Assembly (NCBI GenBank): GCA_951406725.2
Contig: OX597823.1
Span: 72,850,001 to 72,914,000, forward strand
DNA: 64,000 nucleotides
From: Octopus vulgaris
Lineage: Eukaryota
Direction: 5' to 3'
The notes beneath the pieces are model-generated. The model saw only the letters and a program-made list of their open reading frames with translations, was not told where the DNA came from and did no database searches. This document shows, one piece after another, positions 454 to 54,065 of this stretch (positions are counted from its first letter, which is position 1; every line of letters begins with the position of its first letter). A program made the translations under genes and the position numbers.

Positions 454-1047
454 TCACAGTATTGCTATAGCTAAATAGCGAATGTTGTTTTGAAGCAGGA
501 GAGAAAGGGGGGAGAAAGAGAGAGAAAAAAAACAAGAGTGAGAGAGAGAATGGGACACAAAAGGAGGCATTGAAATGAAGATAGAAAATGTTGATCTGCA
601 GTACTTCTTATGCAGTATTTTACTGGGTCTTGGTGAGTAGAGGACGGAATGCGAAATTTCACTGGTCAACATAATACTGTATATCAAAATGTAGAAGCAT
701 TATATTGCAGGGATTTTATGCATTGGTTCGAATTTCATAATTCATGTAGAGTATATCGCATAGGAATAGAGCTAACAATCCATGATGATAGTGTTTATAA
801 TACCGTGATTAATAATTTTTTTTATATCTAACAACACAATAAAACAAGATTAATAATAACAATAATAATAATAATGATACCAACAATAATAATGGTGAGG
901 GTATCAAATTTTGGCAGAAAGCCAGTAATTTCAGGAAGGGGGTATGTTGATCGTATCGCCCCCAGTTTTTAACCGGAACTTATTTTATCGACCCTGATAA
1001 AATATGAATAGTGATAAAATCAACAGACAAATAGATTGATAGATAGC

Positions 1048-1117
<70 letters not shown>

Positions 1118-1322
1118 TACTCACAGACAGAATCGCAGCTATATGAATAGATATATAGATAGATAAATACTCCGACCGACGTACAGGCAGATAGGCAGAT
1201 ATAGAGGCAGACAAACAGAGGCATGCAGACAGGCAGACAGCCTGACAAACAGATAGATGGATAGATAGGTAGAAAGACAGACAGACAGATTGATAGATAG
1301 ATAGATAGATATATAGATATAT

Positions 1323-1368
<46 letters not shown>

Positions 1369-1433
1369 GTTGACAGACTGGTAGGTAGGTAGATAGATAA
1401 ACAGATAGACAGACAGATAGACAGACAGACAGT

Positions 1434-1475
<42 letters not shown>

Positions 1476-1500
1476 CATAGATAGATAGATAGATAGATAG
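340..1500. repeat. (AGAT)n/(AGAC)n tetranucleotide microsatellite arrays (340-452 and 1030-1500)
   Basis: Direct reading; explains the YLSI-repeat ORFs. Confidence 0.95.
900..1022 (-). mobile_element. Degraded 3' part of the Nin/Deu-like-core SINE family
   Basis: Reverse complement resembles GTCGATAAAATAAGT..CCAG and ..AAAATTTGA seen in better copies at 14019 and 62605. Confidence 0.6.
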
Positions 1501-2543
1501 ATGAGTCGTCGCATGGAATACTAGCTAATTATAATAAGAAACTTGAAATGAGAATCAACAATGGTGGAGTTGTGGCATTTATTGTTGTCGTTATCATTGC
1601 TGCCGTCTTGTAATTCCTTGTTTTGTATATCTATTTTAAAATATATATTAACGAAGACCTACAAATTTTATAATGAATGAAGCTATCAGTTTTCTTTATT
1701 AGGTATATTAACTGAAATCCGAAAGATGCAACATCACATTGCTTCGGAATAAACGAAGAAGGAAATTAATATAAGAGAAATACGGGTGGTTACATACTTT
1801 AACGGAAAAATATCGAGCTAAACGTGCTTGAGGAAGTAAGAAATGGTGATAAAAAAAAAAAGCACAGTTGTAAAAGAGATTGAAGAAATAAATGAGGGAG
1901 TGAAATGATAAGTGAACGAATATTTGAGTTGTAGAAATTTCGCTCCAACTACAACACTTGTATGGAAAAGACTTCCGCATGGATAGAATGTTGTATAGGG
2001 GAATTTTCACTGGAAACTAAAGACTAGATGTGGCAACTCGTTCGTGAGTCTTCAGCACAACGGCATGGTGTATGATGGTGGTGATGCTCTCGCTGCTGCA
2101 GCAGCAGAATCTAGTGGTGTTGATGATGATACTGATGATGATGATGATGATGGTGAGTGGTGGTTGTGTTGGTGTTGGTGTTGGTGGTGAGGGTAGTTAT
2201 GGTGGAGGTAGCGGTGGCTATTGTTGTAGATGTTGTTGTTGTTGTGGTGGTGGTGGTGATGGGGGTGGGGTGGGGTTGTTGACGACTACGATGACGACGA
2301 CGACGGTTAAGACGATGAAGGCGACGATGAAGACGAGGACGGCCGTGCAGCTATGTTACGACTACTATTGCTGGTACTGCCGCCACTGTTGATGTTGACG
2401 ATGATGATTATTTCAGGGACACTATAAACTACGACAACGATAATAATAATAATAATGATGAAGGAGATTATTACGATGGTATATCTAACACGAATGTCAT
2501 AAATTGAAATTATTTTCTGCGAAACAAAATAATATTATTAGTG

Positions 2544-2618
<75 letters not shown>

Positions 2619-2917
2619 TGACTTTAAGAAGAATGAATTCTCTAACTGAAAATTTTGCGATGCTCATGCCTCTCCTTTACTAGGGTACTACTACTGGCTC
2701 CAGCCGGGAATGGAAACCGGATTTGCGGAATACGTTCACCGAGATTTTATCGCAGCATCTTTGCGCTCGCCAGACAGTAATGATAATAATGCTCGTTGTT
2801 TATCATTCTGATATGGGGTACTACTAATGATGTGGCGATAATGAGATTGACGAAGACAACATCATCATCATCATCACTATCAACAACAACAACAACAACA
2901 ACAATAGTAATAATAGT

Positions 2918-2958
<41 letters not shown>

Positions 2959-3108
2959 AATTCTTACCTTATCGTTTCCAGAAATGTTATACCGAAGGTT
3001 TGTATAAAAAATTGATGAACATACAACATAAATAAATTTTACTATGGAAATATCCTTTGCACTTGCTTTGACTTTGAAGTGATTTCGCTTGCGATATTTG
3101 GCATAAAG

Positions 3109-3170
<62 letters not shown>

Positions 3171-3498
3171 TAGTATATGATATATGATATTTATATATAC
3201 ATATATATCAATATACATACATACATAGAATATATGTATGTGTGTATATATATACGATGTATATGTGTATCCTTGTATGTTATATCATATATAATCTGCT
3301 AAGTAAACCGAATGTTGACAATTGAGAAGAAATAAAGTAGGATGGAGGAAGCACCGAAATCCTTTCAATTTATAATAGAGTAAAATCCTGCTTGATTTTC
3401 GTGGAAAGTCTCTTGCCATGTGATTGCTACTGAATCTTCTTGTAAAAATATAATCCGAACCAGCGTTATTTGTCATAGGCAGGAACCGCTGCTATTAA

Positions 3499-3542
<44 letters not shown>

Positions 3543-3568
3543 ATATTATATATGTATATTATATATAC

Positions 3569-3620
<52 letters not shown>

Positions 3621-3635
3621 ATATATATATATATG

Positions 3636-3689
<54 letters not shown>

Positions 3690-4478
3690 TTTAATATACT
3701 AGGGGGAGAAATTCGTTAATTACTCATATTGTTTTTGTTCTTGTGAAGGTTGAGTAAGTTTTTTTTTTTTCTTTAGAATTGCGTCAACATGATCTCTTTC
3801 TTTTCTGGTCGCTTTAATTTAAATTTTTTTTTTTTATCTTTTAAGGTGGGGTGCGCTCGCTGGCTTTGAAGTCTTTTGGAAATAATTATTTCATCTTGTA
3901 TGACACCGCATTGCAACAAATTACCGTGTTGATAGCGGGTGTTTTCTTGTCTACGTTCTCTGTTGTTTCTTCTTCTTTCTTTTTTTCTTTCTTCAGCAGA
4001 AAAACAACAACAGAAGCAACAAAAACAACGAAAATAATTATGAACCCACCCTTTAAACCGAAGAGAGTCAAGCACCGCTCCTCAGCGGCACACACCACAC
4101 ACACACACACACACACCACCTCTCTTAACGCCACCGACACAAACCAACTTTGGAGCTTCTGCTACCACAGCGAACTACCAACAACACCAACACCAGCCAC
4201 ATCCTCGCCGCCGTCACCTCCGCTGCCGACTCTACCATCGCCGTCAACACCACTGCTGCCACTCTCTCCTTTTTTGCCATCAACACCGACACATCCTCTA
4301 TCACCAGGCCCATCGCCTGCATCATCGTAATCTTCATCGCTGTCATTGTCATCAGAGTTATTATTTATTATTGTTATTATTATTTTTATCTTATGCTTTT
4401 GTTATTGGTCCTTGTAGTATTTCCTGGTTCGTTGCCCTTTTGGCAAATAATAATAATAATGATAATAATAATAAAAAA

Positions 4479-4525
<47 letters not shown>

Positions 4526-4639
4526 CTAACAATAATAATATTTGTTTCTAACAATAATTTTTTTATTTACAGCAACACCAACAACAACGGTAACAAAACA
4601 ACAGTAAAATGATAATAATAATAATAATAACAATAATAC

Positions 4640-4697
<58 letters not shown>

Positions 4698-5016
4698 GTA
4701 ATAATAATAATGATGATGATGATGATATTGATGACAATAATAAATTTGTCTATAGGAATTTATTTTGTCTTTTTACTTCATATTTGTTTTGATATTATTT
4801 ATATTAATTAAAAATTGCCTAATTAAAATCATAATTGTTGCTGTTATTGCAGTCGATGCTTTCTTTAATCTTTGTTGCTGCTGTAGTATAGTTTGTTATT
4901 ATATTTGCTCTTGCTAGTGTCAATGAAACTCCTACCAGTAATATGCAGGGAACAATTAATTTTGATGTGTGTGTGTATACATATATATATATATATATAT
5001 ATACGCTCACACACAC

Positions 5017-5116
<100 letters not shown>

Positions 5117-6449
5117 TCTCTTTGGTAAAAGCTCTCCCTGGATCACTTTCTATGTATTTTGATTTAAGATTAGTCCTCCTTTCTTTTCCCCGTCTTCTTC
5201 TTACTCTTCTTTTTCTTCCATTTTACTGTTGTTTTTCTTATTATCTGTTCCCTCCACCTCCGACTCCCACTCATTCGGCTGCCCCTTCTATTTTTCTATT
5301 TCTTTTCTTCCTCCGCCTCACCTACGGATCTCCCCCATTGACCACCGTGCAGATAGCTAAACCAACAGACACACGGTTCGGCAAAACCGCCTTGCCGCAT
5401 CTCTTAATGATCCATGTCTTTAAGCTGGTCGGCTGCATAGTCGTTGAATATACGTTGACTAACTTATTGAGGTGCGGAGTTTGCGTGTTGGTGGGCTACA
5501 GATTCTTTCCTTAAACGTAGCCTCACCACAACCAACTCGGCCATACCAAATATGTTACAACATCAACGAACATATCGACATATACATACAAGTAACACAG
5601 CACACCCTCTTTTCACTTCTCTTACTATATCTTCATTTTAATCAGATAGTGTCTATCTTTGTTTCTATCTGCAAATATGTATTTATGAGTGACCGCACGT
5701 TTAGATTTATAAGTAATTTTGGACGTATCTATGTTTTGTGCATATATATGCACGCATGCATTTGTGCATGTATGTCTTTCCTTTAGCTAATACATCTACA
5801 TATGTATCGCCATTCAGTAGTATCTCTGTAGTATATTTTTGCCTGCATGCCTGTCTGTCCTTTCTCTTACACCCTCTCCGTGTCTCTCTCATTTTCTCTC
5901 CCTCTCGCACTCTTTCCTATTCTTTCTATCTCAACCTTTGGTTCTATGGCGTTTGTTTCAGCGAGAGTATTTGAGAAAGTGTGAAGAACGTAAAGGCAGA
6001 TAGAGTAGAGCTAGCTAGACGCTAGTAGCACTAGTTATTACGATGTCAACCAATAGTCGCAGCTGTAAAACTGAATCTCTTTATATAGTCTTATAGATGT
6101 ACCTAGCTTAAATGAATGAGAATTTTGTATATACGCCAACAGACACATGTATACATATTTACAGCTTTATATATATGTGCGTATGTTTACGCACACACAC
6201 GGATATATATATATATATGCATGTATTTATATATACATGCATATACATTTATTCATATACGTACACATATGCATATATTTATGCACATTGTCTACAAGTA
6301 CATGCATATATTTGTGTGTGTGTATATATAAGTGTGTGCATACATATAAGCAGATATATGTAGGCATATATGTGTACATATACATATTTATTTGTATATA
6401 TATTTTGCGTGTGTGTGTTTGCATATATATGCATACTTTTGTATGCATA

Positions 6450-45059: not shown

Positions 45060-46651
45060 AAATAGAAAAATGTAAAGGATTTTTATGAAAAGTAACGATA
45101 GATATATACAATTATATGACCTGAGGTAGGAATAAAAGTAATAAAAATTATTTTTGTGAATTATTAAACAGATTCAAAAGCATACTGGTTTCGTAAAATT
45201 GTTGATCACTGATTACTGAACAGTGTCAGGTCTACTAGTCCGCGAATAAAAAGATTGTGTGAAGGGAGGTAAGTAGTTCTGGATTTGGTGCAATTAGTGT
45301 AGACACAGATCTGTAATGTGAATGGTGTATGGGATGAATGGGGGTTAGTGGTGTTAATTGAAAGGTTAGTAGTGTTCTGTATTGTGTTATGTGTTCATAT
45401 TGAGTTGTGGAATATATTTATTGATGAAAGTTGCCTCTTTATTAATTGTTTGTTGTATTGAGTTGTTCTGTGACCATTGATAAAAGGGGAAAATTAGGAA
45501 ATTAGGATTAAGGCTCCTAGCACATATTTCTAAGCGTTCACTGAGCTGTATCTGTCTGTGTTGTGAGTAGCGGATTTGTTCTTTATAGAGAGTTGTTCTT
45601 CGACGGTGTGATATTCCTGTTTGGCCAATATAATGATTACCACACACTAAGCATATAATGGCATAGATTAGATTTTTCGAGGTACTGGTCAAATTTGATT
45701 TGATCTTAAATATTTCACCTTGTTTAAAGTGGAACTCTGAACCCTCCACAATATGGGGGCATGTACCGCAGTTAGGTCGACCATATTTTTTCACTTTTGG
45801 TTCAGTTGTTCATGGAGATAGTCTTGCGCTGGTTAATTTTTTTTTTTTATGATTTCGGTTGCATTTTGCTTTTGATAATTTTGTGTGAGCTTAATATTTT
45901 GTTCATTGTTTTATCTCGTGTGAGGATGGGGAGATTTTGGATGATAATGTTGAAGGCTTTATTGTTTCTATGGTTATGTGTGGAGATGTATGGGAGTATT
46001 TTTAAGTCTGGTGTAGTATTTCTGATGACTTCTCTCAATGTTCGTATATCTATTTCCTTAGCTCGTTTAATGCCATCATTTATTACTGATATAGAGTAAT
46101 ATCTTGAATAGTATTGATCTGAATGTAGGAGTCTTCGTTCTCGGGTAGAGGTGTCCGAAACTATGGTACAGATTCTTTTCGCTAGATTAATATATATTTT
46201 AATTTTTATATGTTTTGGGTAGCCTGAGTTGAATAATAGGTATTGTTTAGAATCTGTGGGTTTATAGAAGATATCTGCTTCGATGTGGTTATTGACTATT
46301 TTAATTAGGATGTCAAGAAAGGGGAGGTGCTAATTGCTGTACTCCATGAGGAATTGTATGTTGCTAATAATATTGTTAAGCATTATTTTGGAATCGAGGC
46401 GTTTGTCCATACTGTCTTTCCAAATTATAAAGCAATCATCCAAATAGCTCTTCCAGTTCTCCTTTAAATGGCAATAGAATGGGATGCCATATTTTTGTTG
46501 TGATGATTGGTATATTTTAAGCTCTAGGTAACCCAATACAAGGTTCGCAATCACTGGAGAAGCTCGAGTTCCCATTGCAGTTCCACATTATTGTCGATGG
46601 TAAACTGTATCGAATATGAAATAGTTCTGCAGTAGGATGAATTTGAGTGCT
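45060..46651 (-). mobile_element. 5'-truncated Penelope-like element (Neptune-type layout): RT C-half, Cys linker, GIY-YIG, 3' terminal repeat
   Basis: GTAMGTR, YLDDCF, LPFLDI, FYKPTD, RPNCGTCPHI, NLIYAIICLVCGNHYIGQTG; stops and frameshifts. Confidence 0.92.
45179..45227 (-). ncRNA. Decayed hammerhead in the 3' terminal repeat of the Penelope-like element
   Basis: CTGTTCA-GTAA..TTAC-GAAA-C-CA-GTA; two core substitutions, but in the expected position downstream of GIY-YIG. Confidence 0.4.
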
Positions 46652-46715
46652 GTGTGTCTATGTATGTCTATATATGTGGATATATGTGTGTGTGTAACAC
46701 ACACATACACACATA

Positions 46716-51944: not shown

Positions 51945-52340
51945 AATATGCTTGGTATCGCAGCGACACCGCTTCAAGGAGTACACTCAAACCATAGTAC
52001 ACTAGAGATCCTATTCGGCACTCACCTAGAACGCCGCCCATAATACGTGGTTGAGACTTCAGCAAGGTCATCAAGGATACAACTATCATTGATATTGATG
52101 AAGCACCAATGACTATCAAGCCAGTTTATGAAGCAATGGTTCCCCCTTTTCAAGACGTTATGGCAGTTAATAACCCCATGAGTGGCATCCCCAAATTATT
52201 GTTTAGGGACTTCAAAAATATCCTTCATGTATTTGAAAGTGACACAATGTCCAACATCTTCAATATGAACCTGAAAACGTAGACGCTTTGCTGTCACATT
52301 ATTATCAGTAACTTGACTATTGACATGAGAAGCCACCAAA
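51945..52340 (+). mobile_element. Helitron PIF1-helicase remnant
   Basis: GIAATPLQG..HST, IDEAPM, PMSGIP.LLFRDFKNILHV, LTIDMR correspond to PIF1 motifs GIAATLL, DEAPM, GDFRQILPV, LTTNMR. Confidence 0.8.
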
Positions 52341-52769
52341 GTTAAATACTGTTACGGTTCTGATGAATATGAAACCATCAAAACAGGTGAATATATTATC
52401 TTTCGATTCCATGCTAACAACATTAAAGTCATAAACTTCTGCGATAGAGTTACTGTCATTCTGCCAATAATTCTACCGTCCAGAAAGTGAGATTACCTTC
52501 AAGTTTAAATTCTTTAAATTCTAAGAAAGCCGTAGTTTGCTATAAATCAGGTACAAGCACAGAATTTAAAGTGATCTCGTACGTTTCTTGTTGACAATTA
52601 TACATTTCAGCTCCTAGAACCCGAAATTTAGAGAGATTAATAAACACGGCTCCAGATTCACAAACGATATATATAATTGTACAGTTCTATATTTAAGATA
52701 TGAGTATTTATGTACATTATTTACATTATTTACATTACACGGATATTTGTCCTCATCTTGTTTGTTGTT

Positions 52770-52815
52770 AACACAATATTTCGGCTGATTTGCCTTCCAG
52801 CCTTCATCAGGTGTC
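52770..52815 (-). ncRNA. Type-I hammerhead ribozyme with intact core
   Basis: GACAC-CTGATGA-A-GGCTG-GAAGGCAAAT-CAGCC-GAA-ATAT-T-GTGTT: 5-bp stems I and II, palindromic loopless stem III. Confidence 0.8.
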
Positions 52816-52867
52816 TTTGGGGAATTTCGAACCTGAGTTCTCATTTCTAAGGTATTAATTATTTTAT

Positions 52868-52940
52868 CGGGCATATGGCGTAGTGGTTAAGAGCGCGAGC
52901 TACTAACGCTAAGATTCCGAGTTCGATTCCAAGCAGTGAC
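52868..52940 (+). mobile_element. tRNA-Thr-like SINE head (Pol III internal promoter) of a hammerhead-bearing element ending near 53204
   Basis: A box TGGCGTAGTGG 52876-52886, B box GAGTTCGATTCC 52919-52930; colinear with eukaryotic tRNA-Thr(AGU) but stems do not pair, so not a functional tRNA. Confidence 0.75.
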
Positions 52941-52968
52941 AATAACAATAATAATAATAATAATATTA

Positions 52969-53010
<42 letters not shown>

Positions 53011-53105
53011 TTTATTATGATAATAACAACAACAGCAACAACAACAACAACAACAACATCAAACAATACCTTAGGAATGAGAACCCCGGTTCGAAATTTC
53101 CTCGA

Positions 53106-53151
53106 GACGCCTGATGAAAGCTAGAGGGTATATCAGCCGAAACATTGTGAT
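53106..53151 (+). ncRNA. Second, more decayed hammerhead copy (inverted partner of 52770-52815)
   Basis: GACGC-CTGATGA-A-AGCTA-GAGGGTATAT-CAGCC-GAA-ACAT-T-GTGAT. Confidence 0.65.
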
Positions 53152-53679
53152 AACAACAAACAAGATGAGGAAAAATATCCGTCAAATGTAAATATTGTAA
53201 ATAATAACTATGATCTACCGAGATGTTTTATCAGATCGATACGCTTCTGAAACCAGTGAGTGGAGTTCAGATGTTCAGATATAATTTATTGATAATAACA
53301 TATAAGTTCAACATAGCTTAATTTTATTCTTAATTAGCCAAGAAGAAAAATCAACTTGTCGCTTAAGTATTTGACGGAGGTCAGTTAAAACAAGTTTGTA
53401 ACATATTTCATCTTTTGAAGGCAAATTCACTGCAGTTACAGTGGACAAAAATATCACACTTATTGTAAAAAGGTGTAAAACAAACACGAGATAGTGCTGC
53501 CCTCTGTCGGAATATCAGACGCGTTTCTAGCTCTTTAGGCGTTACCAATGGGAAATACCAACGCGTTATATATATATATATAACGGGAAAGTTTACGAAA
53601 ATAAACTAAAGATGAAGGCAGGTGGAGTACAAACAAACAAATGTATTAGTATAGCGCTCAAGAATAGAAATAGAGAAAG

Positions 53680-53717
53680 TCTTTTACGTTTCGAGCCTAC
53701 GCTCTTCGACAGAAAGA
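53680..53717 (-). ncRNA. Minimal hammerhead (A6U variant) in a (TA)n-flanked Penelope-type terminal repeat (53583-53778)
   Basis: TCTTT-CTGTCGA-A-GAGC-GTAG-GCTC-GAA-ACGT-A-AAAGA; all stems pair. Confidence 0.7.
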
Positions 53718-53898
53718 TACACAGAAAAAAACAAGGAGAGAAAAAAATGCGTGAAGGAGCTAACGATCTATCATGGCGTATATATATATATATATATATT
53801 GGTAAAAACGTTAAGATAACAAAAGAAAGAGACCTCAATATTATGTAAATAGAGGAAATTTATCTGTAAAATAATATGTGACAATAATTCAATAGCCA

Positions 53899-53961
53899 AG
53901 ATAAAACTCTGAGTTTCGGATGCCGAGGTAGAAATGAACAACACCATCTCTTCAGTTATCT
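53899..53961 (-). ncRNA. Type-I hammerhead with long stem II, left arm of a palindrome
   Basis: AGATAA-CTGAAGA-GATG..CATC-C-GAA-ACT-CAG-AGT-T-TTATCT: 6-bp stem I, 3-bp stem III, GUU site. Confidence 0.75.
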
Positions 53962-53969
53962 GGATGGCT

Positions 53970-54031
53970 AGATAACCGAAGAGATGGTGTTGTGGATTTC
54001 CACCTCGGCATTCGAAATTCAGAGTTTTATC
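53970..54031 (+). ncRNA. Inverted second copy of the same hammerhead (U4C)
   Basis: AGATAA-CCGAAGA-GATG..GTGG-ATTT-CCAC..CATT-C-GAA-ATTCAGAGT-T-TTATC. Confidence 0.65.
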
Positions 54032-54065
54032 ATGGCTATTGAATTATTGTCACATACTATTTTAA

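Follow-up and report, generated by a model that had tools for sequence, protein, structure and literature searches.

The insertion analysed here is a typical tail-out insertion of a Penelope element and not a free-standing SINE, and by every feature tested it belongs to the Penelope/Poseidon PLEs. Its best explanation is probably that a coding Penelope/Poseidon element inserted here as a short copy with two arms, the tRNA-derived head of its pseudo-LTR likely serving as an internal Pol III promoter. The evidence comes from the window, a 64,000-nt stretch of Octopus vulgaris contig OX597823.1, and from a search for copies in the 2.8-Gb genome, which includes the window.

Anatomy of the insertion in the window

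The initial annotation had described a head with A and B boxes at about 52868-52940, a triplet spacer behind it, a forward body at 53065-53204 and an inverted body at 52679-52856, 11 nt from the head. All of these are present, with the limits given in Table 1. By BLAST, the two bodies match at 86.5% identity over 141 nt; they flank the head in divergent orientation, and the inverted arm is 87% identical to the majority sequence of the family. A tail on the inverted arm, absent from the forward arm of this copy, had been missed. The reported lack of poly(A) at this copy was agreed, and no clear target-site duplication (TSD) was found around the insertion, where the best match is 6 nt. The TTTTT run in the spacer, which had been expected to stop Pol III, is indeed there but private to this copy; the majority sequence of 49 copies is without T4. 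A second B-box-like stretch reported in the body turned out to be codons 4-8 of the Penelope ORF.

Table 1. Parts of the two-armed insertion, in positions of the window
Feature	Position	Strand	Description and basis
Inverted, 5'-truncated arm	52682..52856	-	5' leader and first ~55 Penelope ORF codons; ATG at 52844; frame open through the tail; ends at the long (tail) end; BLAST
Penelope tail extension (~28 nt)	52682..52709	-	inverted arm only
Minimal type-I hammerhead in inverted arm	52770..52815	-	predicted cut after 52775; fold and co-fold
Junction between arms (11 nt)	52857..52867	.	sequence
tRNA-derived head	52868..52941	+	part of the coding element's pseudo-LTR; putative Pol III promoter
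A box	52876-52886	+	read from sequence
B box	52919-52930	+	read from sequence
Triplet microsatellite spacer	52942..53055	+	copy-specific (ATT)n block; TTTTT at 53009-53013
Forward arm	53056..53205	+	5' leader and first ~43 ORF codons; no tail; ATG at 53077; stop gained at codon 16; short end inside 9-nt repeats
Decayed hammerhead in forward arm	53106..53151	+	predicted cut after 53146; fold

Judged by its sequence, the head is tRNA-related and not Thr-like, as it had been labelled, with the best score for Arg among the 7 amino-acid types sampled. It was scored against 13 of the genome's own tRNA genes, many isotypes lying outside this sample, and reached 17 with Arg-TCG (shuffle maximum 7), 14 with Arg-TCT (shuffle maximum 14), 13 with Ala and 3-10 with Thr. 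ARAGORN and Rfam made no tRNA call on the head in the window and four loci; its A and B boxes are kept although the cloverleaf is lost. Elsewhere in the window, the stretch at 52000-52290 (+) resembles, by eye, a decayed PIF1/Helitron helicase fragment (putative).

The coding element and its insertion products

Head and body were found to lie within a coding Penelope/Poseidon element. A second RT type, detected by local tblastn with a Neptune-type ORF, was located just upstream of the head in three loci (L039, L158 and L160). The head begins ~25 nt downstream of the stop codon of an 835-codon ORF carrying RT and GIY-YIG domains, and the order of the element is head, spacer, 835-codon ORF, ~25 nt and next head. 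The body represents the first ~50 codons of this ORF with the hammerhead inside, and both the hammerhead and the two 3'-end sites fall within its first 155 nt. Among 30 ORF-picked loci, 27 show the head behind the ORF end (18 of 21 once 9 duplicated copies on contig C31 are removed), as do 21 of 30 RT-picked loci, most of the nine RT-picked misses breaking off before the ORF end; the tail continues into the ORF at 130 places. Partial tandems that form pseudo-LTRs, as in EN+ PLEs, were seen in L220 and in L221+L214, the latter consisting of ORF end, head, body, ORF, head and body. A coding Penelope partner sharing the 3' end, as envisaged in the initial annotation, thus exists, but it contains the whole unit, head included.

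The majority sequence of 49 copies has a single 835-codon frame, which starts inside the body and bears the motifs DKG, YVDD and the GIY-YIG-type VYSIPC..YKGET..EH.K, that is, a single ORF with RT plus a GIY-YIG endonuclease (EN) at the C terminus as in EN+ PLEs. The EN assignment rests on the motif and on alignment to homologs; Pfam gave no significant match on four short natural ORF fragments. The majority protein has 148 homologs at E<=1e-20, mostly RVT_1-bearing. It is 37% identical over residues 35-830 to an Anolis 836-aa protein, which we infer to be that of PAc (Poseidon of Anolis carolinensis), and 31% over part of its length to a Neptune-type ORF; the scores are 488 bits to the Anolis protein against 159 to the Neptune-type L067. 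The CX2-5CxxC finger between RT and EN is absent, as in the Penelope/Poseidon clade. The element is placed in Penelope/Poseidon because of these motifs and the sequence similarity, with the clade features taken from the available part of PMC8557442. The body is regarded as coding since a natural 847-aa homolog (56% identity) keeps the peptide that it encodes and since, in 52 of 54 cases, its variants in length are 9 nt apart. Copies show a non-CpG divergence of ~4%, and none of the ~60 coding loci seen holds an intact ORF.

Some related observations were made in the course of these searches. A Pfam GIY-YIG search of the genome gave 148 matches; the 30 that were fetched are Neptune-type, with a C-terminal EN and linker CxxC, and were rejected as partners, none of them having head or body. 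L067, L072 and others form a young Neptune-type PLE family, 16 of the 148 GIY-YIG matches lying in open frames of 781 aa, and the window itself holds a decayed Neptune-type PLE ORF with RT and GIY-YIG at 45399-46698 (-), 46-51% identical to L067. Protein relatives of the element at 56-76% identity (P0001, P0008 and P0015) come from ENA records and a barnacle; going by sequence, their patchy spread could reflect horizontal transfer. No DNA context of the protein relatives was found in metagenome or viral contigs. The ten copies of one ORF-bearing insertion on contig C31 (L167, L169, L172, L173, L177, L179, L181, L184, L185 and L190) share flanks that are about 90-97% alike and were amplified with a larger repeat unit, not by transposition.

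The copies of the unit have two fixed end sites, one within the 9-nt repeats at ORF nt ~109-130 and the other at the end of the tail (ORF nt 154). Among 51 automatically paired tail-out arms, from which 11 duplicated and 4 repeated loci were dropped and a few complex loci kept, exactly one arm carries a tail of ~25-30 nt in 48 pairs and neither arm in 3, while pairs with both tails number 0 against 25 expected (p ~1e-11). An inverted 5'-truncated arm with the tail at one end only is likewise a feature of EN+ PLEs, in which, according to the available text of PMC8557442, the tail is often confined to one end. TSDs of at least 10 nt, allowing one mismatch, flank 30 of the 51 pairs against 2.1% of shuffled flanks, and paired arms share few private variants (5 of 256 sites against a null of 1.2%), which would fit one RNA template as well as two. 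LINE-type tails and TSDs had been named beforehand as signs against Penelope mobilisation; TSDs are common, yet the copies have two fixed PLE-type ends in place of a LINE-type end with poly(A) or simple-repeat tail, and the TSDs do not point to a LINE. Mobilisation by Penelope machinery is supported. The anole Poseidon protein, in the available part of PMC11167929, nicks both strands and primes internally at two sites bounding the tail, with an internal start at +111-118 followed by a 30-40 nt tail, and the octopus sites at ORF nt ~+109-130 and +154 match this arrangement.

The family is abundant. Six loci were present in forty unselected 10-kb stretches, which corresponds to about 40,000 loci genome-wide within a wide range of roughly 15,000-90,000, and from exact 20-mer counts, with divergence put at ~4.5%, we estimate about 16,000 arms with a tail. 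Sequence words of the element also occur in organisms A-F, with no RNA run listed among the holders, a neutral outcome. Most copies begin with the tRNA-derived head and its A and B boxes, a feature of tRNA-SINEs. The co-occurrence of head and body, proposed as a check in the initial annotation, is borne out: a body lies behind the head, in the same orientation, in 25 of 28 loci picked by the head (after removal of one duplicate and the window locus), 19 of 29 picked by the body and 22 of 30 picked by the hammerhead.

Proposed transcription of the element and competing readings

Under the favoured explanation, Pol III would start 6-7 nt upstream of the head and, as TTTT is absent, could read the ORF and continue into the next tandem unit. 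The RT/endonuclease of the element would nick both target strands ~12 nt apart, and cDNA would be primed internally at two sites, by analogy with anole Poseidon in vitro; one nick would take the tail site, its partner the upstream one, which would produce a tail-out pair. Priming at the first pseudo-LTR of the transcript would yield the ~270-nt SINE-like copy, running off at the RNA 5' end, and priming at the second pseudo-LTR the rarer ORF-bearing copies. The hammerhead would stay uncut in the template RNA. A bolder version, which we regard as possible but put forward only tentatively, is that the whole 2.8-kb coding Penelope is transcribed by Pol III from a captured tRNA promoter, keeps its ORF free of TTTT and mass-produces its own 'SINE', SM-alpha-type hammerhead SINEs being of like origin.

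The 5' ends of copies were counted on 62 head-bearing arms, none picked on the head. Truncation inside the head affects 23 of them, which counts against the favoured explanation, and 39 reach its first bases; of the latter, 33 stop at most 8 nt upstream, one stops at -15 and five continue into the ORF. This wall before the head is also where 2 of 16 ORF read-through copies begin. The main rival, though an unlikely one, holds that the head is a tRNA/SINE fragment that landed behind the ORF stop and is merely carried along, with Pol II transcription and with the 5' wall arising from stalling or fold-back of the RT at a hairpin. A 5-bp hairpin does overlap the wall, where a halted RT could thus look like a transcription start, and 4 of the 33 arms stopping there are hairpin junctions, with the cDNA end apparently folded back, a configuration found in several loci. 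Penelope pLTRs, moreover, normally hold promoters according to the available part of PMC6765202. Against a passive head, the hairpin has only 5 bp, the boxes have remained intact while the cloverleaf was lost, and a TATA-like word, read from the majority sequence, lies ~25-30 nt upstream of a pyrimidine-purine start.

The distribution of T4 bears on the same question. No TTTT occurs in the 2.8-kb majority sequence of 49 copies, which speaks against a passive head, and the 2.49-kb ORF has 0 against 2.7-4.3 expected (P 0.036, 0.027 and 0.011 in synonymous, codon and base shuffles, respectively), whereas two Neptune-type ORFs of equal T content have 7 and 6 such runs in 1.8 kb. The deficit is nevertheless modest, a point in favour of the passive head, and the argument is weakened further because G4 is absent from the ORF too (P 0.05-0.28).

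Three raw RNA-seq runs, fragmented, of unknown strandedness and labelled as organism B, a label other than that of the source, showed equal depth on both strands, with 68-71% of reads running into unlike flanks and with loose ends at the two known 3' sites; no pile-up of starts was found in them. This signal is read-through of embedded copies and is compatible with or without a Pol III transcript. That only read-through is seen suits a passive head, and the lack of any direct sign of Pol III transcription in these runs counts against the favoured explanation, as do the need to translate an uncapped Pol III RNA and the lack of an intact ORF among the coding loci. Each of the three RNA runs showed, with 26-65 reads, an opposite-strand joint at L180:2463 and 2492 that was not listed for the contig run; it is probably one expressed inverted copy.

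The short copies could also constitute a true SINE, that is, a self-propagating non-autonomous family in which Pol III would transcribe the tail-bearing members and the coding element would move them again in trans. We consider this improbable, even though it can coexist with the favoured explanation. Genome-wide, exact 20-mers taken upstream of the head, from the head, from the tail and from the ORF after the tail number 856, 5148, 6543 and 109, respectively. The rise from 856 to 5148 agrees with the wall before the head in the favoured explanation, and the ~60-fold excess of tail over ORF-start 20-mers agrees with such a family, as do the absence of the ORF from all 6 unselected loci and the retention of the boxes in short copies. 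Short and ORF-linked copies, on the other hand, are of equal age (non-CpG divergence 3.6 and 3.8%) and have an identical majority body; no diagnostic differences between them were seen, the one head difference between the two sets tracing to locus picking by the window's own allele. Indels stay in frame, no common 3' flanks beyond the tail are apparent by eye, and the anole protein needs ORF sequence past the tail, namely the first 172 nt, in the available text of PMC11167929. No non-autonomous lineage apart from the partner is visible, and the head is found within the partner itself, so the free-standing SINE of the initial annotation was abandoned. The unit is SINE-like at its 5' end, but it fails as a SINE on independence from the partner and on the type of tail.

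A retrozyme-like route, in which hammerhead cleavage of dimeric RNA would supply monomers or circles as templates, is very improbable. The hammerhead element is not a chance occurrence, since its 46-nt word has 848 exact copies in the genome against 0 for the reversed control; Rfam found no hammerhead even at E 10 in the window and four loci. The predicted fold is type-I: stem I has 5 bp, the core is intact, stem II is preceded by an extra A, and stem III is palindromic and lacks a loop. It corresponds to the minimal hammerhead in the pseudo-LTRs of EN+ PLEs. One such motif had been claimed for each body: the inverted arm keeps core, stems and palindrome, whereas the forward arm has an intact core but has lost the stem III palindrome and has damaged stems I and II. 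Because stem III is loop-less and palindromic, activity is predicted only as a dimer, as the minimal PLE form requires in the available part of PMC4209133; a monomer-active hammerhead is not supported for the same reason. This dimer-competent form in the majority sequence is in keeping with a retrozyme-like route, and core plus palindrome are kept in 18 of 69 unselected arms. At L016:1113-1666, three head-less bodies, each with a tail, stand in direct tandem, the only retrozyme-like layout seen, with the junction away from the hammerhead cut site. The prevailing layout is inverted and not tandem, however, and among 147 body matches only 1 ends and 2 start near the cut. The three RNA-seq runs labelled organism B show no pile-up of read ends at the cut site. 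Self-cleavage by way of dimeric or circular RNA, as first proposed, has therefore left no trace in copy ends or read ends, and the copy ends do not outline the cleavage-bounded tandem monomers of retrozymes and SM-alpha. Catalytic positions decay at the neutral rate (4.2 vs 4.4%), hence no selection acts on catalytic bases within copies, as expected of dead copies, and hammerhead cleavage is dispensable in the anole Poseidon element according to the available text of PMC11167929.

That head and body are separate insertions, or that the unit is a LINE-mobilised SINE, is hardly credible: TSDs exist as after LINE insertion and nothing else speaks for it, while the linkage in 25 of 28 head-picked loci and the position within a coding element rule out a separately inserted head, and poly(A) or simple-repeat tails are missing where the two fixed 3' ends and the one-tail rule hold.

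Three other hammerhead-like motifs occur in the same part of the window. The one at 53675-53725 (-) is short; its core has an altered start and its stem III is nearly palindromic. With 13 matches in the 400 kb of unselected DNA, it is about twice as frequent as the element studied here. At 53880-54065 (-), another PLE-type hammerhead, whose stem III is longer, lies in a repeat with a nearby inverted partial copy and has 2 matches in the same 400 kb. The third, at 53500-53560 (-), is degenerate with a palindromic stem III, and no match to it was found in the unselected 400-kb sample.

Comparison with known systems

The short form may already be catalogued as an octopus SINE. Ohshima and Okada reportedly described in 1994 the octopus tRNA-derived retroposon families OK, OR1 and OR2, of Arg origin, and the short unit, with its tRNA-Arg-like head and length of a few hundred nt, may be one of these retroposons. 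Metazoan non-LTR retrozymes and newt satellite 2 carry a minimal type-I hammerhead with palindromic stem III in tandem or circular, non-coding units; the hammerhead type is common to both, whereas the octopus unit derives from a coding element and is inverted in most cases.

The open-licence literature yielded no account of a PLE whose pseudo-LTR carries a tRNA/Pol III head, nor of a hammerhead SINE in octopus, and octopus repeat papers, in their available parts, list SINEs and PLEs separately (PMC13282606, PMC8967140). Going by this literature, the tRNA head in a PLE pseudo-LTR would be new. The insertion signature is known in kind because the available texts of PMC11167929 and PMC8557442 describe it, the count of 48 of 51 coming from the present analysis. 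The element shows how a SINE-like family can come from a Penelope element with neither a LINE nor a separate non-autonomous lineage, and part of the SINE annotation in such genomes is Penelope pseudo-LTR. The one-tail rule, together with the 12-nt duplications, serves as a genomic, strand-paired readout of the two in vitro priming sites.

PAc, as far as it is described in the available parts of PMC11167929 and PMC8557442, is similar in having a single RT plus C-terminal GIY-YIG ORF (~835 aa), a hammerhead overlapping the ORF start, partial tandems, an inverted 5' arm, a tail at one end only and a pair of 3' ends that lie about 30 nt from each other in the first ~155 ORF nt. The octopus element has a tRNA-derived A/B-box head in the pseudo-LTR, with most copies starting there and measuring ~270 nt, and lacks sense-strand T4, features that do not appear in those texts.

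The TRIMp3 elements Cassandra, Helenus and Ajax are non-autonomous LTR elements whose autonomous partners are argued to need Pol II (PMC10886601, in its available part). They share with the octopus element a small-RNA-derived Pol III promoter in the terminal repeat, here a promoter-like head, but in octopus the element that bears this head is itself coding, a PLE. Reading of the ORF by Pol III, if it occurs, would contradict that published expectation and would leave the translation of an uncapped RNA to be explained.

Finally, the schistosome SM-alpha and Sj-alpha SINE-like repeats, as presented in the available part of PMC6765202, are tandem, non-coding and cleavage-processed, with no partner named there. 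Like the octopus unit, they are short, high-copy repeats in which a hammerhead follows a Pol III-type promoter; the octopus unit differs in lying within a coding element, in being mainly inverted and in having no ends at the cut site. The octopus element suggests a testable origin for these schistosome hammerhead SINEs.
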